DNA from: Phoronis australis
Lineage: Eukaryota > Animalia > Phoronida
Length of the DNA: 64,000 bases
Direction of reading: 5' to 3'
Assembly: GCA_002633005.1 (NCBI GenBank)
Contig: NMRA01000349.1
Location: forward strand, 275,106 to 339,105
Within the stretch, counting starts at the first letter, position 1. Every line of letters starts with the position of its first letter. Below the pieces are notes generated by a model, which was given only the letters and a program-made list of their open reading frames with translations, did not search any database and was not told the DNA's origin. The translations under genes and the position numbers were made by a program. This document shows, in pieces, positions 1,346-48,800 of this stretch.

Positions 1346-1424
1346 TATGAACAGTCCCACTAAATAAGATTGGTCCTAACCCCGCTCGTCAAGGTAAACG
1401 GTGGGGTATGGAAAATTGAACTAG

Positions 1425-3515: not shown

Positions 3516-4859
3516 AGAAGGCGCTGTCACAATTCAAGAAATAGTTAACGTCACTAAGTCATTGGATATCATGAGCTCAGTAATGAGCACAAAAATTCCA
3601 CAAACTTCTTTTTGATGGTCTTCAGTGAAGAATTTCCTTCATAAGGCTGTTCTCAATTTGTCATCAAGCTCTCAATGTAATCCTGATGCGTTTGCCTCTT
3701 GAAATGAAGGTTGATAAATTTATCAACCTTCATTTCAAGAGGCAAACACATACACGTCTTCAAAGCTTGGTTCAGTCACGCTGCTCAAATAATTGTCACT
3801 CCATAATTGAAGTGAAATTGTTCATTAAGACATGCAATTACGGTTGATCTTGTTTATAGCTATTTTGTGATTGCATTTTATTGGTATATCTTGCCATTTT
3901 AATGATAGTCTGAAGATGACATCTTTAGCACTCGAAGGATTTCACCTCATCTTTACGTCTAGTCTTCATCAAAATTTGACAAAATATGAAATTTAGTTAT
4001 CTAATTTTGTATTCGCTGTGCTGCAGCAATTTTAGTTTTTCGTACTGTATATACTTGACATTTTTATTTCAGATTTTAAAAAGCATCTGTCACTTCCTCC
4101 AGTCCTTAAACCCTTAGACGTACTTACTAGTGAATTCTTGATTACTGAGAGTTGTGAATTCTTGCCTTAATTAAAACACTGCACAAACATTGATAATCAC
4201 AAACTCAACATTTTTTGTTAAAAAGCATATTAATCTGAACTTTTGTTTTCGAAAAACACAAATGCACGGTCAAGTTTATATTTGAACTTTATACTCTAAC
4301 TGCCAAACAGGAAACCATTTCTCAGATTTTGTCTACACTCTAGCAAAGGAGAAATCAGCCATCAAAATCTTTCAAACAGCATCCCAAGAGATTTTGTTTT
4401 TGATGGCTTATATCTCCCGACCATTATTTTAAGGACAATCAAAAATCTATCTGAGTCTCAGTGTTACTGGCCATAAACCACAAGATGAGTGTAAATTTTT
4501 ATTTGAATCATCCCATGTTATAAAGAGAAATCCGTGTTCAAAATTATCTACTGACACGATTGAAATCCAGAAGACCTAAAAATGTCCAGTATGCTATTGA
4601 AATCCATTTGAATTTCATATAAAACAATGACATACTTTGTTGTGCGCAAATCATGTGTTTAAAGAAATATTGTGTGTAATAATGGAAAATAAATTAAAGT
4701 GTGTTTCATACAATATGTTAATGTTGCATTTGTCAACAGAAGTTTTCTGAAGGTTTACAATAACCTTAAATTTTTAAATCTTTCTTGTAAGGGAGCTTGT
4801 AGTACCCCTCGTTGTTTGACATTTGATTGTACTAAACTCTTTCCCATTGTCTTTCCCAG

Positions 4860-4965
4860 CTTCTTCAGGCAGCCAAGGCTGATGCTGAAGAGAAGGCTAA
4901 GGAGCAACAGGATCTTGAGAAGGCACAAGCAGCTAGCTTCAGCTTACTGTTTGATGAGTTCCAAG
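4860..4965 (+). CDS. FAM114A2: FAM114A exon (LLQAAKADAEEKAKEQQDLEKAQAASFSLLFDEFQ)
   Basis: ttcccag| acceptor, |gtaac donor, 106 nt, phase 0-1. Confidence 0.85.
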
Positions 4966-25900: not shown

Positions 25901-28900
25901 TGGTATTTTTAAATATGGGTTAGCATCAGGTCACTGTTTAAAACATCCTTGCTGGATTACATGAGCATCAGATGAAAGCAGACAATAAGAAAGCTGGACT
26001 TTGTAAACATTGGTTTGCCACTGTCAAACTGATAACAACAGGGCTGTATCCTGACTGACCAAGCAGTCAATCAGGAATCAGCAGTTTAAAGTTAAGTCTA
26101 ATTTCTCCCAAAGTCAACAACTTTTTTAGTAATAGCATTTCATAAAGAACGTGGTTGTTTGCATTTCTCATAGTGCTAACAGATGAGGGAAATCTGACCT
26201 AGGGTAAACATGCCCTAAAAGCCAGAAAGTTGAGCATCTTTTATCCATCTTTGCCTAAGGGCTGGTACTCCATTTGTGAATCAGCCACCTTGAAATTCAC
26301 CCCATGGCTGATGTGGGGCTATTTCCATTGGGGTGTCAGGTGACTATAGTCAGGATCCAGGGGCGGATCCAGGATTTTGAGTAAGGGGCGGGGGGGGCAG
26401 GACAAAGGAATAACCAGAATTTCGCCAGCCTAAAATGTACAGATGTAAGGGGTCTTGAAGTTTTGGGACCTTATGACTAAAAAAACGGGTAAACTCGGTG
26501 TGTTCATGGCCGCTATGCATTGTGCATTCCGCCCCCTCCCCCAATCCCCTCTAGGTGCGCGCATGTTCCAGTCAGCAATTCGTACCCTGAACTGTAATTT
26601 CTAGAACGGCGGACCTTTGATATTTTGCAAATATCGACACTATAGTTTTTGTTAAGGCCCTTGATGCAGCTTAAATAGGGGAGAGGTAAAGCTATATACA
26701 CGATGACACTCAGCTCTATGTTCCTGAAATGAGACGGAATTCATAATACCAGAAATGTGGTTACTCACAAAGAACAGCACTTAAATTCGGATGTTACGTG
26801 GTCCAGAAAGAGTACATTCTCGCATTACCCCAGCCAATGAACTTTCAAATCGGTCGCACTTAAATGAGTGATAACACCTCATTTCATATTCGGACGAAAC
26901 TATGTGGTCGGAGAATGACTCGAAATTTTTATCTGGTTATATTTTGCATGTTACTTAAGTTGCTTAATGGCTGAAAACGGCAACAGCCCAGTATTCCAAT
27001 GGTTCACTACTCTGAAGGTTCACTACTCCAATCAAAGGTTCATTGCACGAAAAATATCTATAATTTCGGATTCAGCTGTAGTTTTTTAACATTTACGGTA
27101 TTAGATGTACTGAGTGGTGTACCAGCATAACCGAAACAAATTTCGTATTTCATGTGCATGAGAAATTGCCTACATCTGTGTCTTACGAATTTGGAAAATG
27201 AGTACAGTGTACTTGCATTTTTAAAGGAATATGAAGTAGGAATATTGAATTATCAACCATGGCATTCATCAAATTCATATCAAGATTGCATCATTTCACA
27301 GCGCAACTGAAAAGTTAATTAGGGCCGCTGCACCTCAATCTCACCCGAGCCCGCCGGAATCACGCTCGTGGCCGAGCTGTAGGGTGCCCTGTCCTGGTCA
27401 GTTTTCATGAAGTCAAACAGTTCCATTCAGTATTCTCGAATTTAAAATAAAACGGAAGAATGGAAACGCACACACATGTACAAGTATGGATGTCAATACA
27501 CCAATCCACTATTAAAGTCGACACTGGATGAACAACTTATTTGACAATCACTAATTTGATGAAGCGCTTGAAAATTATTACTAACTTGGTTATAATTATA
27601 GTTTGTACCAGTATCAGCAACAATTTTTTGTTGTTGCCCACTTATGTCCTATCATTAACGGATAGGCTGAGGCTGGACCTTTTCTGCAGGGGGGGTTTTC
27701 GAACCGCTGAACCCCCTGGCTACAGGCCAGTGTCCCAAATGCAGAATTTTTACCGGTTACCATGTGTGCCCATGTGCCGAGTCAGAGCACCTCTGTTACT
27801 GCACACATGCCCACACTGGGTACAAGTTGTGTCATTCCATAAGTCTGCATCTTCATCATCATTGTCATCACCACCATTAGGGCAATATATTTGCTTGTCA
27901 TGTGTGCGCATGTGCCAGGCTAGTGCAGCTCTGTTGCTGCAAACACGTCCACACTGAGTGCACACTGTGTCATTCCACGAGTCTGCATCTGTGGTATCTC
28001 CATTGATAGGTTAGTGTGTTTGATTACCATGTGAGCGCAGGTGTGAAATGAGACCTGCTCGGTTGCTACAAACACACCCACAAATTGTGCATGCTGTGTC
28101 ATCCCAGGAGTGTTCTTCATCAGACATGGGGTCGTCATATTCAATCCACGATTCTGCTTTATTTACCAACTCGTTACCATGGTCACTGTGTTGGCGTATT
28201 TGATTGACGTGTGTAGGCATGTCTAGAGCACCTCTGTTGGTGCACACGTGACTATAAGAGGTGCGAAATGGGACTTCCCAAGATAGTATTTCATTGGGTA
28301 CATGCTTATTTTCTTCAGTCGTTTGGTCGCCATATTCATGTGTATGTGTGCCGCTGTACACACCCAGAAATGTTATGCGTTCTGCATCAGTCCAAGAGTT
28401 TGTTTCATGAAGTGTCTTACCGCCATTGCTCCCACCATCATTGGATTGGTACATATGGTAATTATGTGCATGCCTATGTGAGGCCACGCCAGCGTCACTG
28501 CTGTACATAGTCCCACATCTGGCACTTTCTGTATCATCCCAGGACTGTTTTCCATTGATTGTCTTATAATCATCACTGGGTTGGAACAAACGGTAGTCGC
28601 GTGTGCGTTTATGTGAGGCCAAGCCATCACCTCTGCTTTACATAGGCTTATACCTGGCACTTTCTGCATTATCCTAAGGATTGTTCTCTACTGAGCTTCT
28701 TATAGTCGTCACTAGATTGGTACAAATGGTAGTTACGTGTGAATGTATGTGAGGTTAAACTATCTCAGCTGCTGTACACAGGCTCATACCTGGCACTTTC
28801 TACATCATACCAAGACTGTTCACCATTGAGTTACTTTTAATCATTTAACTGGATTGGTACAAATGGTAGTATGTCGTCTGTGCGGGTGTAATTCAATGAC

Positions 28901-31900
28901 TGCTTGATTTTTGTCCCAGCATGTATGGTTCACCATTTTCTGAAAATTGGGTTTGCTTGTGTGATCCAGGCTTGGATTAATGTTAGGAAATGTTAAAAAT
29001 CATTTATTGCAAATGGAGAGCCATTGGTGTGTCTGTTATTCTTTTGCCTATTTGTAGGTCTGTTAGTCTAGTTTTCAGGTCTATTCGATTGGTATTCAGG
29101 TCTATTAGTCTGGTTTTCAGGTTTTTTTGTCTGGTTTCCAGCTCTATTAGTCTGGTTTCCAGGTCTATTAGTCTGGTTTCCAGGTATTTTAGTCTGGTTT
29201 CCAAGTCTATTGGTCTGGGCATATTCAGGACAGCAAATAGCGGTTGGTGGCCCAAACATTCAGGTTGTGGTTTTAATTTGACCTTGGGAATGTCAGTTAT
29301 TAATCCATTATATAAAAAATAGTCGATCTTTTTTTCTTCATTGTCTGGGTACAAATGGAATTGGGTGTGTTCTTCTAAGACTTTCTTTGCGTTGGAGATC
29401 TTAAAGTTGAAGTCGCCTCCAACAAGTATTTTCAATCCCTCCTGTTTGCTTAACTCATCCAGCAAAAGCAGAAGCTCTTTGAATATGGTTTCCTTTTCTT
29501 CCTTCTTTACTTTTAAATGACGGCCGTGGTAAGTGGCCACAAGAAGTTTTAGATTCGGCTCGGGCTTTGATTGTAACTTTGTGATGAACAGCCTGTTTAA
29601 AAATTCACTGTTATTAGATACCAGGGACGTCTCGAGAAGTTCCTCATGTTTGGGCGTTAAGTCATATTCTTCAGTCTGCAGTTCATTTACATCGTACACG
29701 AAACATGTTGATGAGTAAGGTCTGTCTTCTTTTCCCTCCAATACCTCGTAACACCTGGGTTTAAAGGAGTCTGCATTTTTGTTCAGGTGTTTTTTTTTAA
29801 ATCTATCTGCATTGCTTAACTCTTGCAGAAACATCAGGGCCCGGTCTCCAATCTTTTTACTCGAAATGGAACTCGAAATTAGGTTTGGCATTTTCTACTC
29901 TACTTTTGGGCGAACTCAAGATAAGTGTCTATTATTCTATGCTCGAGTATACAATAACTTACGTAGATAATTTATTGCCCTTAGTTCACAGTTTGTAAAC
30001 CCAATATTAAAGCAATAAGTTCGAGTTTGAACTCGAAATTTCGAGTTTTTACTCGAGATTGTAGCACGAATATAAGGGTCTTCAAGGGCAAACTTGAACT
30101 AGAAACTCCTATGCATTAACTATAATGTATTCGAGCACAGTCTGATAACCAATTATCTTAAGTTCGCACAAAAGGAGCAGAGAAATTGCCAAAAATAGTT
30201 TCGAGTTCGTTTCGAGTACAAAGATTAGAGACCGGGCCCAGATGTGGCTTTTTTGCCTCCAGCAAGTCGCGTATGTATGTATATGCTTCCGTGGTGTTCC
30301 CTGATTTAGGGCCTGCATTCAAGTTTATTAATTTAATCTTCATGATTGTGTGATGTATGTTTGTCTGCTTTTATATCAGATGGGTGGTTGATGCATATTG
30401 TCTTTGCTGTATGCTATCTGAAATGTGTCAAAAAGGAATAATTAGTTATAGAAGAGAACAATACATGGAAATATGAAAAATGAATGTAGTTTGAAATCAT
30501 TTTTTATGTAGTGATATTTCCTTGTTACAGTGTAACAGTGTTTAAAACTACAAGACGCGATTATCATATTTAACAGAGTGTCTTTACTGTAAAACAAAAT
30601 TTATAGGTGTTCGTACTGAAGTAAACTAACCAAAAAATTAAATGTACACCATGTTGTTGTTGTTCACTACTAATTACCAGGAAATAGAGAACATGGATGT
30701 AGTCCATGTAGGTGTTTGCCAGGAAATTCCCGACATTTTGAAATGTCTCGGGAATTTTTGTCTGATGTTGGGAGAACAAGTTTTTATGAGTATTTGCGAG
30801 TCAGAAACCAAAAGTCACAAATTGGCAGATTTCACCAGTGTGGGTTCCTGGTTTCTTGGAATTATTGATGTACCATAATTTGGTTGTGCCTAAGCTATAC
30901 TTACTTGTTGTTTTCTGAGCTTCACACAATGCCAGTCACCCTGGTATCTGCTGTTCTTTTTAAGATTCTAAACTGTGTCAACTTAAAGGTAGTGTTATCA
31001 CAGTTGAGTCCTTTCTCAGCATTAAATTCCCCTGGACTGTTAAAACCAATACCAGGATCCAATATAGATTCATGTTCCATTATACTTGACAAATAAACCT
31101 ATTGTGTTGGTATACAATGCTGTGGTAGTATTTGTACATTGTGTACCACTATCCTAGAGTGTAAAAATCAATTTCCACTATCACGATCTAGTCTAGAATC
31201 ATTCTCCCATAGTCAACCACTTTTCTCCATTTGAAGTTTTTTTAGTAATAGCATTTCATGAAGAACACGTCTTCTTCACATTTGTGGAATGATGTTTAGA
31301 AATAGTGTTTTTACTTGGCGGAATTTTAATTCCGCCAAGTATGTTGGTCTGACAGCAAGTTTTTCTTTTTTTGTTTGTTCGCTCTCTACAGGTCGTCGTG
31401 TAGATCGGGAAGTACTGGAACGCTATTGTTTTTGGTCATGATCGGATTCAAAATGGCAGACGTGGCAGCCATTTTGTTTCCAATTTCACAGTCAAATGCT
31501 CGTAGAGGCCGCATTTTTCGACGTACAGGGCTGAAACGTGGTACAATTATTATAGAACACGTGCTACAACTGTGCCGAAAATCGTTGACTTCCAGTCAAA
31601 GATGGCAGAAATATTGACGATGGCGCATGTGCACCTTGATATCTGGCCAAAAACGTTTTCCCCTGTAGAGGGCGCATTAGCGAACCAATCACTTTCAAAC
31701 TGGTCACGTGTTTCTTGGAATTGATCAGCTTTTACAAAATATTGTTTAACCGGAAGTCACTTTCAAGATGGCGGCTCTGGCGCATTTTCACCCATTTTCA
31801 ATCGTTCTGCTGTCGCCTTTTTAACGGGAAGAGCAAATTGTTGTGTACTTAGTCACAATAACAGGATGTTTGTAGGTTGTTATTGTTATGAGTTTAGTAG

Positions 31901-34900
31901 GTTAATTGGTATTATGTCATGCGATTCCTAGTATAGGAAGTGTGTCATAGGTAACGCATCATATGTTGTTATGTAGTTGTGTGTATATATATTGTTGTGA
32001 TATGTAGAATAAATTAGTTCAGTTTTTCAGTTCAATTCTGTTCGTTTCACTGCGTAGTTCATGGAGTGTCTACTTTATTTGACAAAGTAAGATACACAAC
32101 ACAAATGACGTGAATTTTTGCATGTAGATTCCTTGAAGTATGCTCTTTCAAAATTTCTGGGATAACGGTTTCCTCAGACTTACCGTTTTCGAGTTATTTG
32201 ACTTTGAATTTCAAAAAAATACAAAATTTCAATTTTTTCGATAAATTTATGGAATGTTAAAACTATCAATTTAGATAGAATTTCGAACGGGCTTACAGAA
32301 GATATTGTCCATTTTTCGCTAGATAATACAACACAAGAGAGCAAAGCAGTCATGGTACCTGAACATGGCCAAATTTCTTTTAATGATAGTGTTCAAGATG
32401 AAATATCAAAAATGTTGCCACAGTTTTGTATGTTTTTTCATGAAAATCTTTATAGTTCTATTTTGTTGTGACCCTGCATTGTAAAAATGGAAAGTTTAAA
32501 AAAAACAAGTCCTAACTGTACTGTGGTTTGGATCATAAACCATCACATGTGAAAGCTTATATGAATTTAAATAGCCATTTCTGAGATGTGATGTTCTGAA
32601 GTTGGCCAAATTTGGACATTTATCTACAGGTCCCTCTCAACCTCAGTATCATGTGATTCACAGAACTATTTGCTATCAGTGCCATTTTGAGAAAACTTAG
32701 CCAAAATAAATCACTCTAGTTCATGTCTTGGTGATCTTAAGATCAAACACAAATTCAAGCATGGTATAAATTACCATGTAGATGTCTGAGGAACTATTGA
32801 TGCACTATAACCGGCTTGTGTCTAAATTGTACTTACTTATTGCTTCCTGGCCTTCATTGCCAGTCACCCTGACAGTCCTATTTAAGATTCTAAACTGAGC
32901 CAGCTGATTAATAAGGTAGTGTTACATAATTGTGTACTTCCTGGTTGTTTGCATTTCTCAGTACTAACAGGTTGTGAGGCAAATCTTACCTCAGGTAAAC
33001 ATACCCTAAAGGCCAGGAAACTAACCTGTTTGGCAACTTTTATTCACCCTTACAGGAGTGCTGATACTCCATTTCTGAATCAGCCAAATTGAAATTCACC
33101 CCATGGCTGATGTGGGGCTATTTCCATAGGGGTGTCAGATGACTAGTCTGAGGCTGATATAATGAGAGTGCTTGATAGATTTCAAAACATACCAACTTCA
33201 ACCTCTGCATGAGTTCAGTTTGTTAAAACTGCAAAAAATTTAAGTAAAAGCAATTAATGTATTAGTTATTAGAACCAACAACTGATATTCATGTTCGTTT
33301 GAACATCTCAGTTACTGTAAACTGCAAACATTAAATGATTTGATGAAAAAAACTTTAATTTTCATCTAAGCATCATTACAACAGAAGTTAGGTCTAGTGG
33401 ACTTTAGTATTGACTTAGTCAGAATAATTAAATAAATATCCATGCTGAGCAATTTGGCAACAAAGTTGTAACTTTTGTCGAAGCTGAAAACTTTCACAGT
33501 GACATTAACACATAAGTAATTGCCCAGTTGTATACCTTTCAGATGAAACTGAACACGACTTTGTCAAGTTGGTGACGAATCATTTAACTGAAGTTCACCT
33601 TGGGACTGCTCCTGACAAACTGAACCAGGTAGGATTGGCTGGCACAAGTTCGTCTAAAAGTTAAAGTCTCCAGGTGGCTCTACTTTGGTCGTGTTCTCAT
33701 AGTGCAGCAAATCAAGTTCTAGGCGCAAAATCTGTCGTTAGTTGGGTTACGTAATCATGTTTTTTGTTGTACGTTTGTTAGAAAAATGAGAAGGTACATT
33801 CATTTGATACAACACTGGGTATCAATTACTGTAACAGTTCTTTGATCAAATCATACAAAGCAGTAACAGTATGTTATGCCTAAAGTTTGTTTTTGACCTG
33901 TGTACCAGCTTTTCAGCCTCAGAAAACCTAAACGTACTGTGTAAATGCTAAGGCTCGTCTCCTTTCGCGTGAACTTTAAACCTGTACTTACATCACTTAT
34001 TTCAGAGGTTACACAAACACTTAGACATCCTCAGACTAATGTCACGTGACTGCAAGATTAATTTGTTAATTAACTGTATGCTGAACAAAGTTAAGATCAC
34101 TGCGCTCCGCCCAGATTTCGTTAACAAGCTGCTTCACGTGATTTCTGTTTCTCTGTTATTTTAAATGAGGATAATCTTACTGTAATATGCCGTTTTTTGT
34201 CACTAATATAAACATGATTATAGATAATGAATGAAGGTTCACTGTATTGTGAATTGAGTATGAACTGTAAGTACAGCTGCAGTTAAGTTCTTCTGGACAA
34301 CACCCTGGGTATTGAGGCTGACATTAAACTCCACTCATTTCTGGTGAAAATCAGAATAACGAGTGTCCCTTGCGACTCCTGGGTACTAACGTACGCATGG
34401 GCGTATGTTTTGCGTACTGCTCAAAAAGCTGAGATAGATGAAATATCGAAGACATCACATCAAGGGACCATTACAGAAATCTCCGTCTTAAACCCAGCCA
34501 CTGGTTCATCTTTCAGGCTCACCTGCAAACACGAGAATGGTTGTCCAAGTGTTTCCTAGAGCAAGCAGCGGGGGACAGTGTAGACCCTCAGGTCAGTGTA
34601 GTAATCTGCTGTTGTATTAATTGTCTGGTCACAATGAGGAAATATGTCGCCAATTGTGCTTGAGTCGAAATTCACTAACAGTCCTAAAAAGCAATATCGA
34701 TGACTTGTCGTTAAAAGTGATTTTATGCTCTTTAAAATTCTGATGGTTTACGAAAATGTTTAACTGAGGTCTTGATCATCATTTATTTTAAGCTTTGGTT
34801 TGAGTTAAAGTCTCCTCAGGATCTATAAGCAATGCGGACACAAACCAGTGGCCAGAGTCACAAATACATCAATGAGATGTAGGTGATTACCAATCACAAC

Positions 34901-37900
34901 ATTCACTATGTTCATAGATTATAGACAACAGATTTGCAACTCCGGCATATTCTTACGAGCCGAGTTGACCTCTCCTAACCTATCTGCTGCAGTTTCCGGT
35001 CAGTTTTAATTTGACGAGAAATACCTGCATCTACTTTACTGTCCAAAACAGCGAAAAAAACATTACTTTATATTAATTTCGGTATTGAAACGCTCTTCAA
35101 AATCTTTCAATAGTAGAAGTGTTGGTATTGTGAGTACTTTTGGCAATGCTACTGGTAATTAATTTCAAAATTCAAACTTCGGTTCCGACCTTTTATGTCG
35201 TCTGCTTGCCCAATAGCAGCATAGTTATCGGACAGTTTTTGATTTACGGTTCACATAGGCCTACTGAGAAAACTACGAAAGCGTGTTTATAAATCAACAT
35301 TCTCAAGTGAGCAGTTCTTCTGGGCAGTGTTGAGTGGCCCTTAAAAGGGCCGTTGGTTGTAGGTATAGCGTGAAATGGTTCTTAAAAGAACCGTTGAATA
35401 ATTCAACATAAATCACACAGTATGCCATGCTCACTCAAGTACTGAAGGTCCTCTTCATTAAAGTTTTCATCTGGAAAGGTTGGATGAAAACAGAGGAGAT
35501 GACAATATCGATGACAGTTGTAACACCTTAGATAGATATCACCGTTCACCAACGTTGTCACGAACCCTGCATCGTTCAGTTCTTGTTCCTGTATCCACAA
35601 ATAATCCTGAACTGTAGGAAAAAAATGACAAACAACACAACGAATCAAATTTCGAAAATCATCGCCTTCGTACGATTCCGTGTTGCTGTCACCAGACTGA
35701 TGTTCTTCCCCAACGTCCATCGTAAAAAATCGACGTTGCAAGTGATGGAAACTTGTCTACGCTCTCGTCCTTTGTTTCTAACCTTTAACCCATTTTTTAA
35801 TAAAGGGGTGTACTGTTTTTGGCTCATGTTGATAGTGCATAATCTATGATTTTACAATGTATTAATAGTGTTAAATGCATATATATGAACTGGTCTCATT
35901 GAGGTGCACAGCAAATAAATTAACTATAACAAATTAAAGTTTTGAAAATATAAAGAGCAGTAACAGACTCCCTAAAAATTAGGCTTGTTTTCGAAAGGTT
36001 TGCGCCATTGGTGATCCGATTGGTTCAATCGCTTGCGGCGGGAAAATTGATAGACCCAGTTATTGTGCGCGTGTACACTGTATCAATGCTTTGTATCTTA
36101 TTCTTATTTGTCTAATCTGTTGATACAGTAAATTTCCTTATTTATGCCCATCCTGATTTAACCCCGACTTGAGCTCCTTGGGTTTTACCATATTGGGGCT
36201 GTCCAGGGACTCACGTGCATGCGCGCACCCAGTCTTCAAAATGGGGGGCTCGAATTCCTGACGTTATGGAACTGTTGTTAACAAGAGAGCGGGCAGACCT
36301 TTTTGCCCACTTCGCCAAATGGGGGGGGCTCGAACCCCCCCCCCTCTGAGTGGCGCACATGACGTGGTGCTTACTCGAATGAGTTTCATTTTAGCGGCTA
36401 TTTCCAATTGTGTAGGTGAAGTAAATTAACAAAGTGGATGATTATCATCACCGGTATTTCATCATTAGTATTTTTGTCGGCCTCTCAAGTTTTCCGTGGC
36501 TAGGGATTGTCACATCTGTAAGGTAGACGTGTTTCAGTGAACCTCCATGTTTGTGGCGTTATTTATACCTGACCAAACTTTGAAAAAGAAGCCCGCGTTT
36601 AAACCAGGAGCTGCATTGGGTGCAATTTGTGTAGACGTTTCATGCGCGCACCCAGCCTCTAATACGGGGGCTCGAATCTCTGGCAAAGTGGACCTTTTGC
36701 TAACAAAAAGCGTGAGAACTAAAATAAAAAACGGGGTGCTGCCGTATTGTGGACTTTCGTCTCTTTCTCTTGGACTTTTCCCCTGGGTGCGCGCATGCGT
36801 TTGTCTACGTTGCTAGTTTTTATAAAGGTGGGCCTGTCTGTAGCCAACTACGGTAAATTCATAAAAGGTCACGTGCAGTGCAACTCAAGTTCATTACAAA
36901 TTAAAAATCCGAACTTTCAAACCGTTTGATCTGAGTTGACATCTCAAATCAAAATTATGAAAATGCCACATAAAAGTATGAAATTGAAAATTAGCACACG
37001 TCAGCTTCACGTCCCTACCACCCCCTTTATCTTGCTTGCTACCTCTTAGGGTTCATTTCCCTTGCTTCCGAGGTTTTTCGTTATTCTGGTATTTTCATAG
37101 ACTGCAGCGTACTTGGCTAAGATGGTTCAAGTTTTGTGCGGCATACAGTCGACATAAATAATTGAGTATGTAACCTGCTGTTGAATTGCGGGATAGATTT
37201 TGACAGGTCCAGGTATTTATTTCTGAAGTATTAATGTAATCTTTATTTATGTTAAAGGTTTTACTAGCGTCCTATTTATTTGTACACGAATGTGAATTTG
37301 TTGAAATCGCTGATCCAAATCCTGGCCAAATCTGCGCATTATGCTGAGACCAACCGTCTGATCAGGGCCACCTAAGAGTAATTTGGTTAATTCGCTCACT
37401 AGACTATGGCTGAAGGTCCTCGTAAGGACAAGAGTTCACCAGTCACTACCATTGGAAGAAATTTAGCGGACATTTTTCGTCAAAAAGTTTACCAGATAGT
37501 TTTCATCAAAACGGAGAAAAGAAAAATGGATTTGTGAAGACAGGATTAAGTAGTAGGCCTACCAGAGCCTCTTAAAAAACACCCATCTTCGAAGTGTCGT
37601 GAACAAATGTATGAGTTTTTTTTTGGAAGAAAAACTTCCATTCACGTCGACGCAAGAACATAACTTTTTCTCCCAAAGCGGATTTTGTGGTCTTCGTACA
37701 CTATGGAAGCTAACGCCTCTGCATTTCGCCTGCGTAGCCGAACAACCGGCCACACAGCAACCGACCATGATTAGCAGCTATGTTCAGTCATAGTATTCAG
37801 TAGTCTGACGTATAATAGTTTTAGTTTGGCCTCAGGATTTGAAAACCTGCCATACCGAATATCTACGAATTAAGCCCAAGCACATAACATATGATTGTGA

Positions 37901-40810
37901 AACTGTCAGAATTGGGCACGTGCACCTATGTGTGTATCACTTGTCAAAACCAAAAGGCTAAGATTTTAAAATAGCCTGTGTTTGAAATTAATTATCTAAA
38001 ATAAAATGTACTCGGGAATCTGTTCTTAGTGTAACGTCAACTGTCCAAATGTGACCTGGCAAAATTCACATATCTTCAAATGGTGACTGAGCTCGCTAAA
38101 CCTTGTTGGCAAGAGATGAAAATGAAATCCATGAGATACTTGAAGTGAAAAGTCAGCAAATGTTGGTTAGTCAGTATTTTTGGCTCAAACCAAAATTTAG
38201 GAGCATCCCTGCATGCTCGTTGACTACTAATTCCCCCCCTTGGTTGGCGCATAGGCTCACCTGAGGCAGACTAACTCGATCAGGCCCTTCCGATTTTTGC
38301 CTAATGATTCCGACTTCTGTCTACTTCCTGTAGTATTTTGAATGCATGCTCGTATGTCATGTGGTGACTTCGTGGCGATTGAAACTTTTAGCCGCTCTCC
38401 AAACAAAGTCTGAGGTCACATTTGTGACTTACATGTCGTCAAATTGAGCCCTAACCTGTGTGCTGTAAATTGATGACAGAGTATGGTAGTGGAGTGTAGT
38501 TGAAATAGTATTGTGAGTCCCGCCATTGAATTAGTTTGCCACCCTGAGCATATCGACTGGTGCAGAACATTTTGTTTTCTGATAAACTAATTTGAAATTT
38601 TTCATTCAATTGTTTTTCAGGATATCCACGAGAGAGCGCTACGGAGTCTAGCTGAAATAACTGCAAAATGTGTAGAACAGTTTCACAAAGCTGGAGAGCT
38701 GATTTTACTGCAAAAGGATAATGACAAGAACCATCTGAGTAGAGCTGAAAACTTGGCAAGGTATAGCTCATTTTACTAGATTCATGATGAATGTGATATT
38801 TGTCTCGTTAGCCAATACATGTTGAGACTGCTTCATTGGGCATCACATTTCGCAACTGGTGACTTTGAAATCATACTCTTTGAGATTGCAGTTGGTACTT
38901 ACCACTGTGTCTGTAACTTGACGACCAGCTTTTTTTTGGGGGGATTAGGGGATAGCTGCTGTCTGTTTTTGTCAAATTTTTTTCCGGCCATTTAGAAACT
39001 GCAGACTATGAAAACTAAATTTGTCATGATTGAAAATTAAATTTTTCATTGTTTTAAAAGCAAGAATAGGTTTACTACAACAGGGATATTAGGAATAATG
39101 CTTATTGCAACTTTTGCGATCTTTTGTTGATATGTCACAACCTTTATTGTGTAGTTTGACTGAGAAACACAATGGGGCGAGTTAAATCTTGTATTACGCT
39201 ACTGATTATCTGAGAAATCTGAATACCCCCGAAGAATGCAGTGAAATTTGAATTTGGGAGCTCATCGCGGGTGGCTGTCACTTGTTGCAGTGTGATGTAA
39301 GGTTGTAGCTATTTTTTACAAATTGTTTCCTGTTGACTCTCTTGAAGGTGTACTTGTGAACTGTAGAATATCTTGAAATATAATATTTCAAGATTGTTTA
39401 TCAACGTCTTTATCAACATCACTTTCACTGTCTCAATGTTTACTACACTTTTGTTGCACTGAGTCAATCTTGTGATCCTAAGTGCTGTTAGGTATCGTAA
39501 TGACTTTTGATCTCACTTGGTTCAGTGTTGACGTCCTATTGGCAATGGGGACTTGAAACAGGCCGAGACATCTTTTAAAAAATACTTGTTAATAGCTCTG
39601 GAGAAAAAAGTTTTTGTTGCGGCGGGTTGGCATTCCTGAAATTAATAATCAAATTAACACAGTATGGTCTGATTAGAGTTAATTTAAATTATTTAGCTTT
39701 TGCTCCTTGATTCTGTTCTGCACACTGATTTATCCGAGTTTGGAGTTTAAACTTTGCCTGTCTATGTGACTGGTTGATACACCTTGCTCTTTTTCTTGGG
39801 AATCATTTAATTGTTCTTGTCACCCGTTGTGTTCCAGCCTGACACGCGTGGTATGCACGGAAGTACAGATACTGTCCAACAAGTTTACAGCGTGCCTGAC
39901 TGCAGCAGCGGTAAGACAATTGTATAGTTCTTTTTTGTCAAGCAATTGTGTTAATTGACGAATGGCAGCAGTGTCAGGAGTGGTGATCGAACTCTTATCA
40001 TGAGATGGGGAACGCTTGTTTTGGAGAGTTACCCTTACACGGAGGGATTGGAGTATGTCTCATCACTCACTGTTCTTTGCCTAAGAAGCGGAATAACTAC
40101 CCCAAACAGGCACACTTGACCTGCACCGTAGTGTGTGGAAAGGGTTCTTGCGGTGCGTGGTAAGTTTTGTGGAGAGTGGTAAAGGGTTCTGCTCCCGTGG
40201 GAAAGAATCTCTGGGTTAAATGTTGTATGGCCCGTGATAAGTGTTCTACTTTCTGTGGTTAGTGTTTTGTCACTCCTGAGTGTTATCAGAAACTTGTGAC
40301 TTGAATTTGTGTTCAAGCAAACTTTCATAACTTTGAATTTTAAACATTTTTCTCCATTAGTCCCAAATAAATACATCAATTCGAATCAACGAGCAAGGCG
40401 AGAAGAAAGTTGCTTCCATAGCAGCATCTCTCTTTCGTCCAGTTTCAAGACCTGACCTTTGTTGTTAATTTATATTCTTCAAGGTTAATGGTAACATAAT
40501 GACCATTCATGGCAGGAGTGATGTGTGTGAATATTTTTAAAAAGGGTGTGTTGAAACAATTTTTAGAGTTATGTTCGCAAAAGTGCAGTGTAAAGCGTGA
40601 TGTCAGTTGGTACTAGAACACAAGCCAGTGTAACACTTAATTTGTTTTCAGGAAGACTCCGATGAGGTCAACCCTTTGCTGACTGATGTCTACCTGGAGG
40701 CTACCAACAGTAATCAGTACATAATGGACGCGTTCAAGTTGTTATTACCTGTCCTGCAACGGGCAGCACTGGAGGTGTTTGCCGACCGTTGTCAAGGCAA
40801 CTGTCAGTAA
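4860..40810 (+). CDS. FAM114A2: FAM114A family protein (FAM114A2/Noxp20-like), spliced, 5'-partial. Exons: 4860-4965, 19596-19757, 33543-33628, 34517-34591, 38621-38760, 39838-39910, 40652-40810
   Basis: All exons are AG/GT bounded with consistent phases. The spliced translation contains [70 protein letters not shown] and VNPLLTDVYLEATNSNQYIMDAFKLLLPVLQ. These match recalled FAM114A1/A2 motifs ([48 protein letters not shown]). Stop TAA at 40808-40810. Confidence 0.92.
4913..5250 (+). repeat. ~81-bp minisatellite overlapping a FAM114A exon end and donor; more units at about 19270-19465
   Basis: CTTGAGAAGGCACAA..GCTAGCTT..GTTTACTGTTTGATGAGTTCCAAGGTAA repeated about 4 times. Confidence 0.85.
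5627..7058 (+). mobile_element. Second, near-identical HINE copy spanning the assembly gap
   Basis: 5627-5902 matches 15225-15480 and 6836-7058 matches 16070-16310. Confidence 0.78.
5903..6835. other. Assembly gap (933 N)
   Basis: Run of N. Confidence 1.
12134..14532. mobile_element. 2.4-kb non-autonomous Tc1/mariner-pogo-like element
   Basis: TIRs CCRTAATCGTTCGGGTTAAYGCCC, TA on both flanks, subterminal TTAACCGCCC/TAAGCGCCC repeats at both ends. Confidence 0.82.
15225..16310 (+). mobile_element. Non-autonomous Helentron-associated (HINE/DINE-1/pearl-like) element, complete copy
   Basis: T-run start, 5' subTIR ATGCGCCCACA with its nearby inverted copy TGTGGACGCAT, (GTCC)n microsatellite, ~150-bp internal repeats, 3' subTIR TGTGGGCTCAT, 3' hairpin CAACGC..GCGTTG, then TT. 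Confidence 0.8.
16999..17263 (+). mobile_element. Solo LTR
   Basis: TGTTGTGTA...TACACAACA termini, internal AATAAA, 5-bp TSD CTTAC. Confidence 0.88.
18500..18865. repeat. ~80-100-bp tandem repeat, 4 units
   Basis: TCTGAACAC.TA.TTGAT...GAATTCTGTTCTTGAAAG.GTGATTGTCTCTTGACT recurs at about 18545, 18643, 18722 and 18814. Confidence 0.8.
19596..19757 (+). CDS. FAM114A2: FAM114A exon ([27 protein letters not shown]...DDVE)
   Basis: tgtatag| acceptor, |gtgact donor, 162 nt, phase 1-1. Confidence 0.88.
19868..20019. mobile_element. Short MITE with ATTGACCT termini; inverted relative at 49751-49929
   Basis: AATTGACCTATC...GATAGGTCAATT ends; internal sequence shared with the 49.8-kb copy. Confidence 0.65.
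22385..23285 (-). repeat. ~117-120-bp coding-like tandem array of degenerate C2H2 zinc-finger units, copy A
   Basis: Units translate as DDYKKLNGEQSWDDAESARY..VYSS...SH. The downstream unit CHLCGRVCSNRTALTRHMRTY is finger-like. Stops and frameshifts are present. Confidence 0.7.
23287..24252 (-). CDS. EEP-superfamily (endonuclease/exonuclease/phosphatase, DNase I/APE fold) protein with a C-terminal heptad coil, copy A, intact, 321 aa
   Basis: Motifs in order: SLNA, PDLVFLQE, ATYHG, VLVGGDFN, KIDY, LDHKP. The C-terminus has 7-aa repeats (IDQLSSL/IDKLSTQ/IDQLTTQ). Nested antisense in a FAM114A intron. Confidence 0.85.
   Translation of the reverse strand: MAIDFISLNAGRKKGVTTDKVYEYIHGLLKDKQPDLVFLQELSSAKMLLSYLNTHADSLKPACYEVWEGRKDRAGGYTSFVYNLNNVLIEEHDFINMHERLCILKHISEDSEFATRLFIRKFWIKGMSDTYILVATYHGRYKAKDVKESILNELLFLLDYMSKQNGFKVLVGGDFNYESDKAQSVLAKYPQFHLYEAGEKKIDYLLYNGPQYHICNIQFGEGDENILDHKPLLAVLDISSRPIDQLSSLVNQVSTQIDKLSTQTSKDPLGTKTDKLCSQIDQLTTQIGKLMPLLDKHGSQDDTQFPEEGEPRGVNNQAAIE
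27750..28890 (-). repeat. ~117-120-bp coding-like tandem array with three intact C2H2-type fingers, copy B
   Basis: CTICGCVCSNRAGLISHLRSH, CTQCGRVCSNRAALAWHMRTH and CTQCGHVCSNRGALTRHMGTH. ORFs 28011..28622 and 27750..27965 are in the same frame, separated by one TAA. Confidence 0.72.
29004..30343 (-). pseudogene. EEP-superfamily paralog, copy B, interrupted by a 401-bp MITE
   Basis: MKIKLINLNAG...KKPHL (30343-30239) joins in frame to MFLQE...ATYHG...GGDFN...KIDY...LGHQP once 29838-30238 and one CAG copy are removed. Heptads (LIDLETR)n lie at about 29050-29215. Confidence 0.82.
29838..30238. mobile_element. PIF/Harbinger-type MITE, 401 bp
   Basis: TIRs GGCCCGGTCTCYAATCTTTKTACTCGAAA at both ends; 3-bp CAG target duplication at 29835-29837 and 30239-30241. 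Confidence 0.88.
31307..32330 (+). mobile_element. Second family of HINE-like non-autonomous element, interrupted by the solo LTR
   Basis: T-run followed by the palindrome TACTTGGCGGAATTTTAATTCCGCCAAGTA, then internal repeats; right end uncertain. Confidence 0.5.
31839..32101 (+). mobile_element. Solo LTR, same family as 16999-17263
   Basis: Same termini, highly similar body, a different 5-bp TSD (CAAAT). Confidence 0.88.
33543..33628 (+). CDS. FAM114A2: FAM114A exon (DETEHDFVKLVTNHLTEVHLGTAPDKLNQ)
   Basis: ctttcag| acceptor, |gtagg donor, 86 nt, phase 1-0. Confidence 0.85.
34517..34591 (+). CDS. FAM114A2: FAM114A exon (AHLQTREWLSKCFLEQAAGDSVDPQ)
   Basis: ctttcag| acceptor, |gtcagt donor, 75 nt, phase 0-0. 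Confidence 0.82.
35336..35351 (-). promoter_or_regulatory. Histone 3' stem-loop (SLBP-type), distal copy, with a possible HDE downstream
   Basis: The minus strand reads ACCAAC-GGCCCT-TTTA-AGGGCC-ACTCA. A purine-rich CAGAAGAA follows about 13 nt 3' of the stem. Confidence 0.88.
35377..35392 (-). promoter_or_regulatory. Histone 3' stem-loop (SLBP-type), proximal copy
   Basis: The minus strand reads TTCAAC-GGTTCT-TTTA-AGAACC-ATTTC. The 6-bp stem and 4-nt loop fit the metazoan GGYYYU-UYUN-ARRRCC consensus. Confidence 0.85.
35403..35720 (-). CDS. Intronless 105-aa acidic Cys/His protein with PHD-like C4HC3 spacing
   Basis: ATG at 35720-35718 (MDVGEE...). CVVC...CYNC-HRYC-H-LL-C...CDLC gives C-x2-C/C-x2-C-x4-H-x2-C/C-x2-C. 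Histone-type stem-loops follow 10 nt after the stop. Confidence 0.65.
   Translation of the reverse strand: MDVGEEHQSGDSNTESYEGDDFRNLIRCVVCHFFPTVQDYLWIQEQELNDAGFVTTLVNGDIYLRCYNCHRYCHLLCFHPTFPDENFNEEDLQYLSEHGILCDLC
37560..37768 (-). pseudogene. THAP zinc-finger domain relic, probably a DNA-transposase N-terminus
   Basis: MVGCCVAGCS...GVSFH...W, then YICSRHFEDGCF in another frame across an A-run, giving the C2CH THAP signature. Confidence 0.75.
38621..38760 (+). CDS. FAM114A2: FAM114A exon ([30 protein letters not shown]...)
   Basis: ttttcag| acceptor, |gtatag donor, 140 nt, phase 0-2. Confidence 0.9.
39838..39910 (+). CDS. FAM114A2: FAM114A exon ([24 protein letters not shown])
   Basis: gttccag| acceptor, |gtaag donor, 73 nt, phase 2-0. 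Confidence 0.9.
40652..40810 (+). CDS. FAM114A2: FAM114A last coding exon (EDSDEVNPLLTDVYLEATNSNQYIMDAFKLLLPVLQRAALEVFADRCQGNCQ*)
   Basis: ttttcag| acceptor, 159 nt ending in TAA. Confidence 0.9.
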   Translation, partial: EDSDEVNPLLTDVYLEATNSNQYIMDAFKLLLPVLQRAALEVFADRCQGNCQ

Positions 40811-42862: not shown

Positions 42863-45800
42863 CTGCAATGAACGGCTATTGTTAGTTTATGCTCCATTAA
42901 TATGTCATAAACTAAAACTTAAAATCAGCTCTGCATCAGCTTTCTGCTAAAATAATTTACTTAAAATTTATAGCAGTTGCCGCTATGATTTTGGTCTTGA
43001 CTTTCTAGTTTAAGGATTCTTGTAATTTTTTAACATTAAAATATCCTATGAAATCTATTAAAAATACTGATAAATACAACATAAAGAAAAGGCGAGATGA
43101 GATAATTACGAGGTCTTTATATTTAGTTTAAGTCTTACCCCTACAATACTTGCCACACGTGGTCTATCATAAATTATCGGTTATATTTTATTACATCCAT
43201 GTTCCTGTTGACAAAGGACATTTAATTGTAAAGTTTCAGAATCCCTGGTTTGTTATTCCTAGTACTCGTATACCAGCCATCGTATTCAATTGTGGGACTG
43301 ATTTATCTTATCTCTAAATTTCCTCGGTTTAAAAATGACTGAGCTTGGAAAGAACTGATAGCTTCTTCATGTCTCGGTCTAGTGAAGCCTTCCACGGAGG
43401 CAAGACACTCATGAGCACAGCTAGTGTGATCATTTGTTTTGCTCGTAATACGTGGGGATATCTCGCCAAACCTTGCAAGATTTTGCTTTCTTAAAAAAAT
43501 TGGATAATTAAAACTTCTCAATTATTTAGTGAAGTAAGTATTAAGGGCGGGGGGCAGGGCAGAGTATTACCCAGGATTCTGCCCGTCAGACATTTGCACC
43601 CCAGAACTGTCATAAGGAATCTAGGAGAATTTTGGGAGGCCACCACTGAGTATGGCTGGAAATGGACTGGTTCTGAGATTAAACACTAGATGGAGATACC
43701 AGCTGGCACATAGAGACTAATTTTATGATGATTAGCGGTAAACGTCTAGATATTTTTACAAAAGGCAGATGCACAGCAGCTATGACGGAGACAAATACTT
43801 TAAATTAAAAGTGGCATTGTGCCCTGTTTAGCAGACTAAAAAACAATCAAATGAAAAGAGGCTTTATACACTCATAAAATCGGTCTGGTAACATTTCTGA
43901 CTGTGATATTATTCTGTTTCCTTTTCCATACAAGAGAATTGGCAACTTGAGATTAAGAAAATGCGTCAAGTTATAACCAAACGGGCAAACTTAAGCTTAA
44001 AAATTTTCAAAACGAGTTTTCCTTTGCAAATAAGAAAACAAGTTATTACAAAACCAAGTAATTGGGTTAGCAATGATGGCAGGCAATGTAATTTTTGCAA
44101 ACGTGACATGTTTCAACGAGTGTAGCTGCTTTAAAAGATGTCACTTATCCATGACCACAGGATTGGCAAGCACGGTCTCCAAGCTAACATCTCGTCAGTC
44201 GATAAACAAACAAGACGGCAACGAAAGCAGGCTTGCAGGTTTTAATTAGCAGATTAAATGTGAGCTAGCGGTATGAGTGCCAAGAGGTGATTACGCAACT
44301 GAGTTACAAGCAATGATAGCAACGCTGGCGCGGCATTTCCAAAGCTGATCACTTTGCTGAGACTTTCATTTTTGGCTTAAGAAACTATCTGCGAGTTACT
44401 CAACCAAGACACAAGCACATATTATGTTTCCAGTAATGTCGATAAGAACACCATGAATCATAAACAATCACGTAATTCCCAACTAGTGGGAGACAGCTCT
44501 GGACGTTATCATAAACCTGCGTTTTGCCGAAACAACTTTTCAGTTGGGTCATATACCGTTACAACACCAGTCTTGACATATTCCGTACTCAGTTTAAAGT
44601 GAATTCTGTGAGAACAGCTGACAGTTAATTACTGCTCACAGCCAGCCTCAGATGAGCGTCGGTGACGAGCCAAAATGTTGAGCATGATATCGAGCACTAG
44701 CACACTACCACCTCTAACATGAGTAGGGAACAAGTTCAGACCAGTTAAACAATACTGCTAACAGTAAATGCTCGAAATCAACACTTGGTCTTTTAAGTTC
44801 AGTGCCTACTTCTTTACCGAGGATCGCGTTTCTTTTAACATCTTGAAATATTGCCAGTACGTAAATTCCTATATTTTTCGAATCCTTGATAATCTGAAGT
44901 CGATAATGTGATCGAAAAATATACTGGGGTTTTATGAACTGACAATCAATATTTCAAAAGATTATAAAAGAAACGTGGTCTTCAGTAATGAAGGTAGGCA
45001 GTGGCCTCAAAGGAAGATGAATTGTAGCTTTAAGGTTGTAGAAGCAGGAAACTTACTAATGATAGTTTAAGCTAAGTGGGGTCTTCAGGTCCACTCTTAA
45101 CCTGCATTAGAGAGTGACAGTTAAGTGAGAGAAAACAGAGTGTGAAAACGGCGTCGCCGCGTTCCCAAAGGTTAGTCCCACATGAGACCCCCGTGGCGTG
45201 TCTGACGAGCGAGCACCACGAGGCTAACACGCACACCACCTCCGAGACTAGCCTTAGAGTGTAGGACTTATCTAGCAAAGGTGTTATGAGTGTACAGCCA
45301 TGTACACTGGTAGGAGGATGGTAAAGCAGTGATCCTGCACGGCACTCGTCAGGCCATTGCTGCTATTTTGGGAGTTCACGGCAGGGTTAAAACCAAAAGC
45401 TTTTCTGCAATACCAGGTCACCCTTTGGGAATGGAAATAAATATCGCTCAGTATACAACAGTGAAAATTGTCTCTAAAGTTTTTGCAGTGTACTTCAGAC
45501 ATAAATTCAATGCACCTGCAGCAGACACAGCCAAAAGCTGTAACTGTAACGTTTGAACCTAAAAGAAAAAAGATATTTCCAAATGTTTGTTTCGTGAAGA
45601 TGATCTTAAAAACTAGATATGGGTGATTTATAATTTGGTTGCAAACTGTCGTGTATTGGAGTAATGAGAAGATAATGAAAGGATTGCCAAATTATGGCAC
45701 AACAATTTTTGTCAATACACATTAATTTAAAGTTCCACTATTTCCAAAACCCCTCCCAAATGAGCAGTATTTTGCTATACAGCTGGCGTTGACGTCAGCT

Positions 45801-48800
45801 AAAACTCAGCATTTATGAACCAAAAACGGTACTGACCCAACCCTTTTATTTTGCACAGACCAAAACTGCTGTGTGTGAAATTTCCACAGAAAATTCTTGT
45901 TTCGTGTTCAATCTTTTCGTAGAGTTAGCCTTCGGTTATCGATCACGGCGTGTGCAGAAAAACAGAAAACAAAGCACGTCGCCACACCACCACTGGCCAA
46001 TAAGTGACTGACAGCATACAGGTCGATTCGTAGTGTTTGTCAATCACGGCCTGGTCAGTTGAATACTACACCAACATTAAGTGAAGCGTCAACAGTTTGG
46101 GCGGAGTCACAAAGCGATACGGTAAAACTTCTTCAGTTTCGTACGCTATCGGTCGAAACATTTGTTTTATTATGGACTTCCTCGAAAAATAAATGGGAAG
46201 ACAATTTAATAATGTTATTCGCACAGTTTGCACTGTGCTGTTGCCATGAATCAACACATGGTTGAATGTCGTTATCTTCTACAAAATGGCAGATAGCTTT
46301 CCTACAAATTGAAGAACTTTTACCGCAAACAGAATGGAGAAGATGTCAAAAGAAGTACTGGACGTGTTCTCTAAAGCAATCACTACATTGAAGAAAAGCA
46401 ACTGAAAAACAACACAAGCCCAAGTGTAGCTGATAGCACTTGACTGATGGCAAGGCCATTCTTAAACTATTTTTGTTTTTCCTTGGCCTATTCTCACTCT
46501 TCTGAAATTGGTTCCCAAAAGGTAAAACACACCGAAAATTCCACATTTACGTTCAGCCGAGGTCATTTAGTACTTAGTGATTTTCTGCGACTTTAAAAAC
46601 GACTTCACAACAGTTGACCGTGGAACGGAAAACAAACTTAAAAGTTTAATTTGGGCCAAACGGAAAACAAATTAAAAAAGTTTAATTTGGGCCTAACTGG
46701 AGTACACCACAGTTACGACATGTTTCTTCAGCCAGCTTGGCTGACATGAGTGTTAACACACGGGCGATAGTGCATCAACTCACTTATGAAAGGAATGCGT
46801 AGCACACTTATCACTACTAACCTGAGGGTTTGGATGAGCCAAAGCTGAAGCCACCAGTACCAGTATTTGTAAACAGCGTAGTGGCTGGATTAACAAAATA
46901 AACAAGAGTTGTGCAATTAAAACCTCCCATTTAAGAAATATCAGAACAAAAGCAGTACCATAACAACTGTGTTAACTGTTTTCAAATGTACCATGCAGCG
47001 CCATCTTTAAACAGCATTATAAAACAGTTTCAGTTGGAGTTCTATTTTGAAACCCCTTTTCAGGTTTTTAATACGACAAGTCTGCGCTTCTCATTCAGTA
47101 TTAAGGGCCAGGTGGAAATCATTGATCACTTACACTGATCAGTTTGTCACCTCAAATGCAATTTCTTACCCATGACTTAAGGACTGCATGAGGCTTTAAC
47201 AATGTGGCAGAGCTTTGACNTGCAGCGTACTTCAGACATAAATTCAATGCACCTGCAGCAGACACAGCCAAAAGCTGTAACTGTAACATTTGAACCTAAA
47301 AGAAAAAAGATATTTCCAAATGTTTGTTTCATGAAGATGATCTTAAAAACTAGATATGGGTGATTTATAATTTGGTTGCAAACTGTCGTGTATTGGAGTA
47401 ACGAGAAGATAATGAAAGGATTGCCAAATTATGGCACAACAAGCTTTGTCAATACACATTAATTTAAAGTTCCACTATTTCCAAAACCCCTCCCAAATGA
47501 GCAGTATTTTGCTATACAGCTGGTGTTGACGTCAGCTAAAACTCAACATTTATGAACCAAAAACGGTACTGACCCAACCCTTTTATTTTGCACAGACCAA
47601 AACTGCTGCGTGCGAAATTTCCACAGAAAATTCTTGTTTCGTGTTCAATCTTTTCTTAGAGTTAGCCTTCGGTTATCGATCACGGCGTGCGCAGAAAAAC
47701 AGAAAACAAAGCACGTCGCCACACCACCACTGGCCAATAAGTGACTGACAGCATACAGGTCGATTCGTAGTGTTTGTCAATCACGGCCTGGTCAGTTGAA
47801 TACTACACCAACATTAAGTGAAGCGTCAACAGTATGGGCGGAGTCACAAAGCGATACGGTAAAACTTCTTCAGTTTCGTACGCTATCGATTGAAATATTT
47901 GTTTTATTATGGACTTCCTCGAAAAATAAATGGGAAGACAATTTAATAATGTTATTCGCACAGTTTGCACTGTGCTGTTGCCACGAATCAACACATGGTT
48001 GAATGTCGTTATCTTCTACAAAATGGCAGATAGCTTTCCTACAAATTGAAGAACTTTTACCGCAAACAGAATGGAGAAGATGTCAAAAGAAGTACCGGAC
48101 GTGTTCTCTAAAGCAATCACTACATTGAAGAAAAGCAACTGAAAAACAACACAAGCCCAAGTGTAGCTGATAGCACTTGACTGATGGCAAGGCCATTCTT
48201 AAACTATTTTTGTTTTTCCTTGGCCTATTCTCACTCTTCTGAAATTGGTTCCCAAAAGGTAAAACACACCGAACATTCCACATTTACGTTCAGCCGAGGT
48301 CATTTATTACTTAATGATTCTCTGCGACTTTAAAAACGACTTCACAACAGTTGATCGTGGAACGGAAAACAAACTTAAAAGTTTAATTTGGGCCAAACGG
48401 AAAACAACTTAAAAGTTTAATTTGGGCCTAACTGGAGTACACCACAGTTACGACATGTTTCTTCAGCCAGCTTGGCTGACATGAGTGTTAACACACGGGC
48501 GATAGTGCATCAACTCACTTATGAAAGGAATGCGTAGCACACTTATCACTACTAACCTGAGGGTTTGGATGAGCCAAAGCTGAAGCCACCAGTACCAGTA
48601 TTTGTAAACAGCGTAGTGGCTGGATTAACAAAATAAACAAGAGTTGTGCAATTAAAACCTCCCATTTAAGAAATATCAGAACAAAAGCAGTACCATAACA
48701 ACTGTGTTAACTGTTTTCAAATGTACCATGCAGCGCCATCTTTAAACAGCATTATAAAACAGTTTCAGTTGGAGTTCTATTTTGAAACCCCTTTTCAGGT

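Follow-up and report, generated by a model that had tools for sequence, protein, structure and literature searches.

An intronic PHD-like finger gene of Phoronis australis whose layout resembles that of a replication-dependent histone gene

The window, by which we mean the whole 64-kb stretch of Phoronis australis DNA that was analysed, contains a host gene that matches DUF719 at 4836-5102 (E 2e-10) and that we take to be FAM114. Since RNA reads splice its exon at 34517-34591 both to an exon whose end is 33628 and to another whose start is 38621, the finger gene described here lies antisense within a 4-kb host intron (Table 1). It is a 105-aa ORF on the minus strand (35720-35403 in the ORF listing of the window) that is contiguous and does not require an intron, and no joints within it were among those listed from four RNA runs, in keeping with the initial annotation of the gene as intronless. 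The host gene itself has been partially duplicated: its DUF719 coding segment forms a tandem at 4836-5251 (an 84-nt unit in four copies) and is repeated 14 kb further on at 19268-19399.

Table 1. Features of the finger gene, its repeated unit and the flanking host exons.
Feature	Position	Strand	Basis
Host exon before intron 34592-38620 (DUF719/FAM114-type gene)	34517..34591	+	Spliced RNA reads
Repeated unit holding the gene; sharp left end at 34913; coverage continues to 36200, the end of the stretch examined	34913..36200	.	RNA reads
Left end of the unit; about 40 nt common to a more abundant repeat family with many left flanks and a different common right continuation	34913..34954	+	RNA reads
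HDE-like purine run AGAAGAA; possible base-pairing of its GAAGA to the U7 box UCUUU, including one G-U pair	35315..35321	-	
Histone-type hairpin 2; above the Rfam RF00032 cut-off; cleavage predicted near 35331, about 5 nt beyond	35336..35351	-	Scan, fold, Rfam
Histone-type hairpin 1; no HDE-like run behind it; putative extra SLBP site	35377..35392	-	Strict-pattern scan, fold, Rfam score
ORF, 105 aa; acidic N-terminus and C4HC3 PHD-like finger; last Cys is the protein end	35403..35720	-	ORF list, alignment, model, Foldseek, profiles
Left end of the unit repeated exactly, in inverted orientation, over 10 nt	35839..35848	-	Repeat search; RNA reads
TATA-like stretch, 165 nt before the ATG	35878..35885	-	
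Promoter-like cluster: E2F-like octamer, two CCAAT boxes, TTCGAA	35990..36046	-	Motif scan
Host exon after the intron	38621..38761	+	Spliced RNA reads

As judged from sequence profiles, the predicted protein is a member of a nameless conserved family of C4HC3, PHD-like fingers comprising 31 clusters. A search with the single sequence against 1.84 billion representatives gave eight matches, one of which (P0008) proved to be a spurious repeat protein and was dropped, and a profile search reached the 31 clusters, of 77-160 aa, from 2298 candidates; one of them is named, that of the mussel Dreissena polymorpha. The eight zinc ligands (C28, C31, C66, C69, H74, C77, C102 and C105), whose C4HC3 spacing had been recognized correctly at the outset, are all kept in at least 90% of 30 aligned family sequences, as is an acidic S-x-T-E-S motif at the N-terminus in the same 30. 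The relative P0001 runs out of frame after residue 82, and a weak search among 7983 candidates found no longer, fused forms of the finger.

Of the 30 family members, 25 matched PHD_NSD, 15 matched PHD and seven matched SLX1_C at E<=0.05, and the relatives P0003 and P0014 exceed the Pfam cut-off for PHD_NSD. The window protein itself scores below the cut-off for PHD (E 0.88) and for every other Pfam family, and Pfam gave no histone family for it, which agrees with the original remark that it has no histone fold. When its structure model (pLDDT 76.7) was submitted to Foldseek there were no matches at E<=0.001; the first 12 rows listed were PHD domains, the best being PHD6 of MLL3 (E 0.043, probability 0.97), and the first RING appeared at rank 48. 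Named matches in the Atlas were all PHD and all under 0.9, and the best PDB profile match was the C-terminal finger of Slx1, a RING variant (E 0.024). PHD fingers usually have a Trp two residues before the penultimate Cys; in the window protein, where this Cys is C102, an Ile takes the place of that Trp. Since the family matches PHD_NSD and PHD and the Foldseek rows are PHD domains, we consider "PHD-like" a fair label even though the protein's own scores are sub-threshold, with histone reading only putative. The family profiles and the ligands thus bear out the PHD-like protein of the initial annotation. With the PHD fingers (PF00628 and PF22908, the PHD6 domains of MLL3/MLL4 being the top fold matches) the window protein shares the C4HC3 ligands and a weak fold match, but differs in being a stand-alone protein of 105 aa below the Pfam cut-off, with a helical insert of 34 residues separating the second Cys from the third and a conserved acidic S-x-T-E-S N-terminus.

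Behind the ORF and on its sense strand lie two histone-type hairpins, both no further than 67 nt from the stop. Hairpin 1 (35392-35377) begins 10 nt past the stop and hairpin 2 (35351-35336) follows 25 nt beyond it, 51 nt from the ORF. Each folds into a 6-bp stem with a UUUA loop (z -3.72 over the 106-nt stretch). Counting both strands, they are the only strict histone-type hairpins in the window, where 200 order-3 Markov simulations of the window led to an expectation of 0.02, so that the initial observation of two such hairpins is confirmed and is far beyond chance. A loose GG..CC hairpin pattern occurred 15 times against 4.3 expected. When the Rfam Histone3 model, which had been suggested as a check, was run on the window, hairpin 2 passed as the sole Rfam match in the 64 kb (34.8 bits, cut-off 34), whereas hairpin 1 stayed below the cut-off (22.8 bits, E 0.0047).

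Two double changes (TT/AA versus CC/GG) distinguish the stems, which lie in a 30-nt direct repeat that is 73% alike. The double changes had been taken as compensatory; they are indeed there, but they represent a single comparison of neighbouring hairpins and not covariation across genomes. Between 35300 and 35400 there were two of the 40 substitutions and two of the 12 indels listed, all outside the hairpins, and evidence that variants avoid the stems is weak since a further 193 substitutions and five indels lie beyond those listed. Histone pre-mRNA is cut about 5 nt behind the stem-loop. The second G and the 3' A, needed by SLBP according to the accessible text of PMC10388802, are present in both hairpins, whose 5' flank is AAC, not AAA. 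The purine run AGAAGAA begins 15 nt after stem 2, a spacing of 14 nt that compares with 16 nt in a mouse H2a substrate (PMC7026596, accessible portions), and the U7 box is given as UCUUU in the available part of PMC5054213. The HDE-like spacing reported earlier therefore holds for hairpin 2; behind stem 1 there is no purine run, and by chance alone 5% of random 17-nt segments have a run of seven purines. AATAAA is absent between the stop and 34901, where one ATTAAA is present, at 35010. No histone-coding remnant was found before the hairpins, contrary to what would be expected had they been remnants of a decayed histone gene, an objection anticipated in the initial annotation.

Upstream of the ORF, the motifs at 36046-35990, which we take to be E2F-like, CCAAT and TTCGAA elements, form a cluster that occurs once in the window, at one of its four E2F-like octamers, in a scan chosen after the cluster had been seen.

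RNA depth in the intron is about zero from 34620 to 34875 in runs X9, X10 and X4 and is then unbroken to 36200 on both strands. With the host exon as the control for strand assignment, sense depth did not fall behind the hairpins (23-44 over the ORF and 18-33 behind it in X9; 20-26 and then 29-40 in X10), and antisense reads also covered the ORF (13-22 in X9); copies of the repeated unit are transcribed on both strands. An X4 contig (35294-35589) spans both hairpins. Clusters of molecule ends near 35331 or 35372 were absent from the RNA runs, the sole listed end cluster near the hairpins consisting of six molecules of the opposite class at 35362. The hairpin-ended transcript that had been envisaged was thus not seen, as reads cross both hairpins. 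The libraries, for which selection is unspecified in the records, nevertheless look poly(A)-enriched since intron depth is close to zero, and a histone-type message would therefore be hidden in them, so the missing RNA end is not decisive.

The gene's surroundings look like a dispersed repeat with a sharp left end that is likely to be multi-copy. In X9, 132 reads stop at 34912/34913 and continue in mixed sequence, most of them belonging to the commoner repeat that has only the first 40 nt or so in common with the unit. The 639 X9 reads placed comprised 89 that were at least 99% alike, 218 at 95-99% and 332 at 90-95%, with 166 places of change, a divergence to which the high polymorphism of the animal adds allelic differences; read identity in X10 and X11 was similar. 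Broken copies exist: in eight of 51 X9 reads a single base of a seven-base run is missing at 35619. Among the listed substitutions in the ORF four of nine were synonymous, against 19% expected (P 0.08), and in the raw-read runs, a subset chosen afterwards, four of six (P 0.015).

The right end of the unit was not found up to 36200. The exact inverted repeat of the left end, of which 0.01 are expected in the intron, was considered for this role and rejected: reads show no boundary at 35839-35848, both they and an X4 contig without differences (35727-36014) cross it, and the promoter would lie outside. Nor was there a target duplication at the inverted pair of 34913 and 35839-35848, the flanks being unlike. 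That the left end might be that of a Crypton was not supported by the literature checked; terminal repeats are not reported for animal Cryptons in the accessible text of PMC3212892, and there is no ORF in the intron of the size of a tyrosine recombinase. Directly upstream of the promoter-like cluster, a MITE-like unit at 36217-36798, with perfect 16-nt inverted ends and internal repeats, may hide the right end. The stretch 37745-37775 resembles the loose ends of 20-23 reads behind 35143-35145, and a related repeat joins both sequences.

A metagenome scan yielded two confirmed loci (L003 and L004) among 203 pattern matches, while L001 and L002 were dropped as chance 10-residue matches inside unrelated frames. 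The finger of L003 (186-2465) is identical to the last 60 residues of P0025, and 2 nt past its stop begins a 760-codon frame with one internal stop, the second half of which passes DUF7869. L004 (about 1450-2440) has the same gene order in decayed form and is 87% alike to L003 over 1208 nt. In Dreissena, the P0033 gene model carries 40 aa of a DUF7869-type protein behind the finger (60% identical, E 2e-13), as a fusion. The finger gene therefore stands directly before a DUF7869 transposase-like ORF in both relatives for which there is DNA, and a PHD-like ORF followed by a DUF7869 transposase-like ORF would represent a two-gene transposon layout of which we found no description. Our searches found no literature naming DUF7869 and, in the search listings, none on a PHD ORF in Sola elements. 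We take the motifs of the long L003 frame to be those of a Sola1-type DDD transposase. In the Atlas, one DUF7869 cluster is linked to DDE_Tnp_ISAZ013 through 11% of its members. When the DUF7869 protein was modelled from its single sequence the result was poor (pLDDT 41), and fold searches with it gave weak mixed matches. On the motif, DUF7869 and the 11% DDE_Tnp_ISAZ013 link, it is likely that the ORF encodes a transposase. The window holds no transposase remnant, there being no tblastn match below E 1.9.

No histone hairpin was found in L003 or L004, whether by pattern or with Rfam at E<=10, so that such hairpins are not common to the family as a whole. Homologues lacking them had been named at the outset as evidence against a histone-type end, and in part this is what was found; the absence is not decisive because the two loci come from a distant clade and have the transposase immediately after the stop. 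In a tree of 28 of 40 sequences (fragments, near-duplicates and the spurious hit being left out), the window protein and P0002 group on a long branch with 100/100 support, away from the transposase-linked clade. Resolution is lacking in most of this tree, and the order of events proposed below is therefore only inferred. An NY/NF tail ends 19 of the 28 tree sequences and in L003 abuts the transposase, whereas in the window protein, P0002, P0006 and P0039 the last Cys is the terminal residue.

Relatives were found neither in viral contigs, phages and BFVD nor in prokaryote genomes, and neither the hairpin pattern nor the unit's left end matched viral contigs. No polymerase, integrase or capsid ORF was present among the 29 ORFs of at least 80 aa in the window, five of which were profile-scanned, and the gene sits in a 4-kb host intron, all of which speaks against the Maverick/Polinton or viral origin suggested in the initial annotation. 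Its broader idea of mobile cargo fared better, with L003, L004 and P0033 pointing to a DDD-type cut-and-paste element in place of a Maverick/Polinton or virus.

In its layout the finger gene resembles a replication-dependent histone gene without being one. With such genes (RF00032, HDE, SLBP, U7 snRNP, CPSF73) it shares a short intronless ORF, the 16-nt hairpin close behind the stop, a purine run spaced like an HDE, CCAAT and TATA-like motifs and the lack of AATAAA. It differs in that the finger protein is no histone, the hairpins are two in tandem, the locus is apparently dispersed and in an intron, and the RNA end at the hairpin is only predicted. Histone messages are the sole known clients of the SLBP/U7 route according to the accessible parts of PMC4604434, PMC5054213 and PMC10388802. 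We found no report of a non-histone or transposon mRNA with a histone-type end in search listings and the opening lines of abstracts, a scope that excludes subscription journals and Repbase reports, and the accessible part of preprint 10.64898/2026.08.17.745202 has nothing on non-histone hairpins.

The DUF7869 (PF25273) DDD-type transposons, which presumably are Sola1, are the second point of comparison, as finger relatives lie directly before the DUF7869 ORF (L003, L004) or are fused to it (P0033). Unlike these elements the window has no transposase, and no AWWT duplication or long terminal inverted repeats were seen, the right end not having been found up to 36200; the transposase-linked relatives in turn lack the hairpins of the window gene; a 4-bp AWWT duplication is a hallmark of Sola1 in the available text of PMC3845634. 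A separate PHD-bearing gene beside a DDE transposase is also described, in the sources open to us, for RAG2L of the RAG-like Transib elements, but the finger has no kelch domain, the order is tandem and not convergent, and the transposase is of another family. The search listing contained no report of a histone-type 3' end for RAG2L.

We propose, with hopes and doubts about evenly balanced, that the finger is a transposon accessory gene that has lost its transposase and gained a histone-type end. It would have begun as the upstream accessory gene of a DUF7869 cut-and-paste transposon, and in the Phoronis lineage the transposase behind it would have been replaced by a doubled histone-type 3' end, on a repeated unit that is or was mobile. 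The E2F/CCAAT cluster may drive the gene in dividing cells, U7 would pair with the purine run and CPSF73 would cut about 5 nt behind hairpin 2, while hairpin 1, with no HDE, may serve as a second SLBP site. The message would then be non-polyadenylated and S-phase timed, and the read-through RNA would be a polyadenylated fraction from copies inside other transcripts. Most speculatively, the finger might bind histone tails on freshly replicated chromatin and so help the element family to spread or to escape silencing. A bolder version, which we consider less likely than not, is that a transposon-derived chromatin finger took over the whole histone programme (cell-cycle promoter, doubled SLBP hairpin and U7 site), such that a selfish element makes its helper protein in S phase only.

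The hairpins might instead be captured pieces of a histone-gene 3' end, with the message polyadenylated downstream and the hairpins inert or binding SLBP without U7 cutting. This is a possibility that we regard as doubtful. It would account for the reading-through of both hairpins in X9, X10 and X4, and it fits their absence from two of two relatives, the ATTAAA at 35010, the existence of broken copies and the 5% chance background of an HDE-like run. Yet both stems are perfect despite two differing pairs in a 30-nt repeat that is only 73% alike, their position and strand fit the ORF, no histone-coding remnant was found before them, and the near-zero intron depth suggests poly(A)-enriched libraries, which would miss the processed form. 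Similarly, hairpins that were DNA-level signals of an element or virus (Maverick/Polinton cargo) and merely resembled histone hairpins could be expected inside the repeated unit, where they are, but their distance of more than 400 nt from the known unit end, their base-by-base match to the histone consensus, the absence of polymerase, integrase or capsid ORFs from the window and the failure of relatives or hairpin pattern to appear in viral contigs, phages or BFVD make this very improbable.

Whether the unit was ever mobile, and what its protein does, can also be read otherwise. The family could be a domesticated host gene family, immobile, spread by ordinary duplication and expressed like histone genes, as the failure to find a transposase, target duplication or paired ends, the full promoter-like cluster and the long branch (100/100) of the window protein and P0002 away from the transposase-linked clade would allow; we nevertheless think it quite improbable, for the intron position with a sharp repeat boundary, the both-strand transcription and the frameshifted copies fit dispersed mobile copies. 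It is unlikely, though a little less so, that the protein acts as a ubiquitin ligase or adaptor of the RING-variant type (Slx1/MARCH-like C4HC3) and not as a histone reader, a reading compatible with either view of the RNA. The Slx1 C-terminal finger as best PDB profile match (E 0.024), SLX1_C matches in seven of 30 members and the Ile two residues before C102 in place of the Trp usual in PHD fingers point in that direction, against which stand the PHD_NSD (25/30) and PHD (15/30) matches, a Foldseek ranking with PHD domains first and RING at rank 48, and Atlas named matches that are all PHD, if under 0.9.

Should the bolder version hold, a non-histone message would be served by the U7 pathway, and mobile DNA would have put that pathway to use. 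A second SLBP/U7 client would change the histone-only rule, and its transposon origin would suggest how and why clients arise, namely for S-phase timing, high poly(A)-free output and access to replicating chromatin. What is new here is the traceable transposon link of a gene with histone-type hairpins and a nameless 31-cluster family of small PHD-like proteins beside likely DUF7869 transposases, together with the prediction of an exact RNA end near 35331.

The window has other features worth recording. Two ORFs without introns on the minus strand, at 23287-24252 and 29004-29891, encode endonuclease/exonuclease/phosphatase proteins that have coiled-coil tails (Exo_endo_phos E 1.6e-07 and 0.0017) and share 114 identities in 254 columns. 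Behind each stand a 135-nt repeat array and an ORF for a C2H2 finger (22435-22824 and 28011-28508), antisense in host introns, and no reverse transcriptase was seen. The second endonuclease ORF is cut at its 5' end by a MITE-like insertion at 29831-30245, the inverted ends of which measure 36 nt (92%). A near-identical tandem duplication of about 1.7 kb at 45484-48710, beside a single N at 47220, is possibly an assembly artefact. Positions 1-17700 carry modular repeats of a dispersed family, the common core of which is present in at least 8-10 copies, 3686-3751 is a near-perfect 33-bp palindrome without spacer, and a 21-nt tandem array at 56054-56284 contains a 90-aa open frame.
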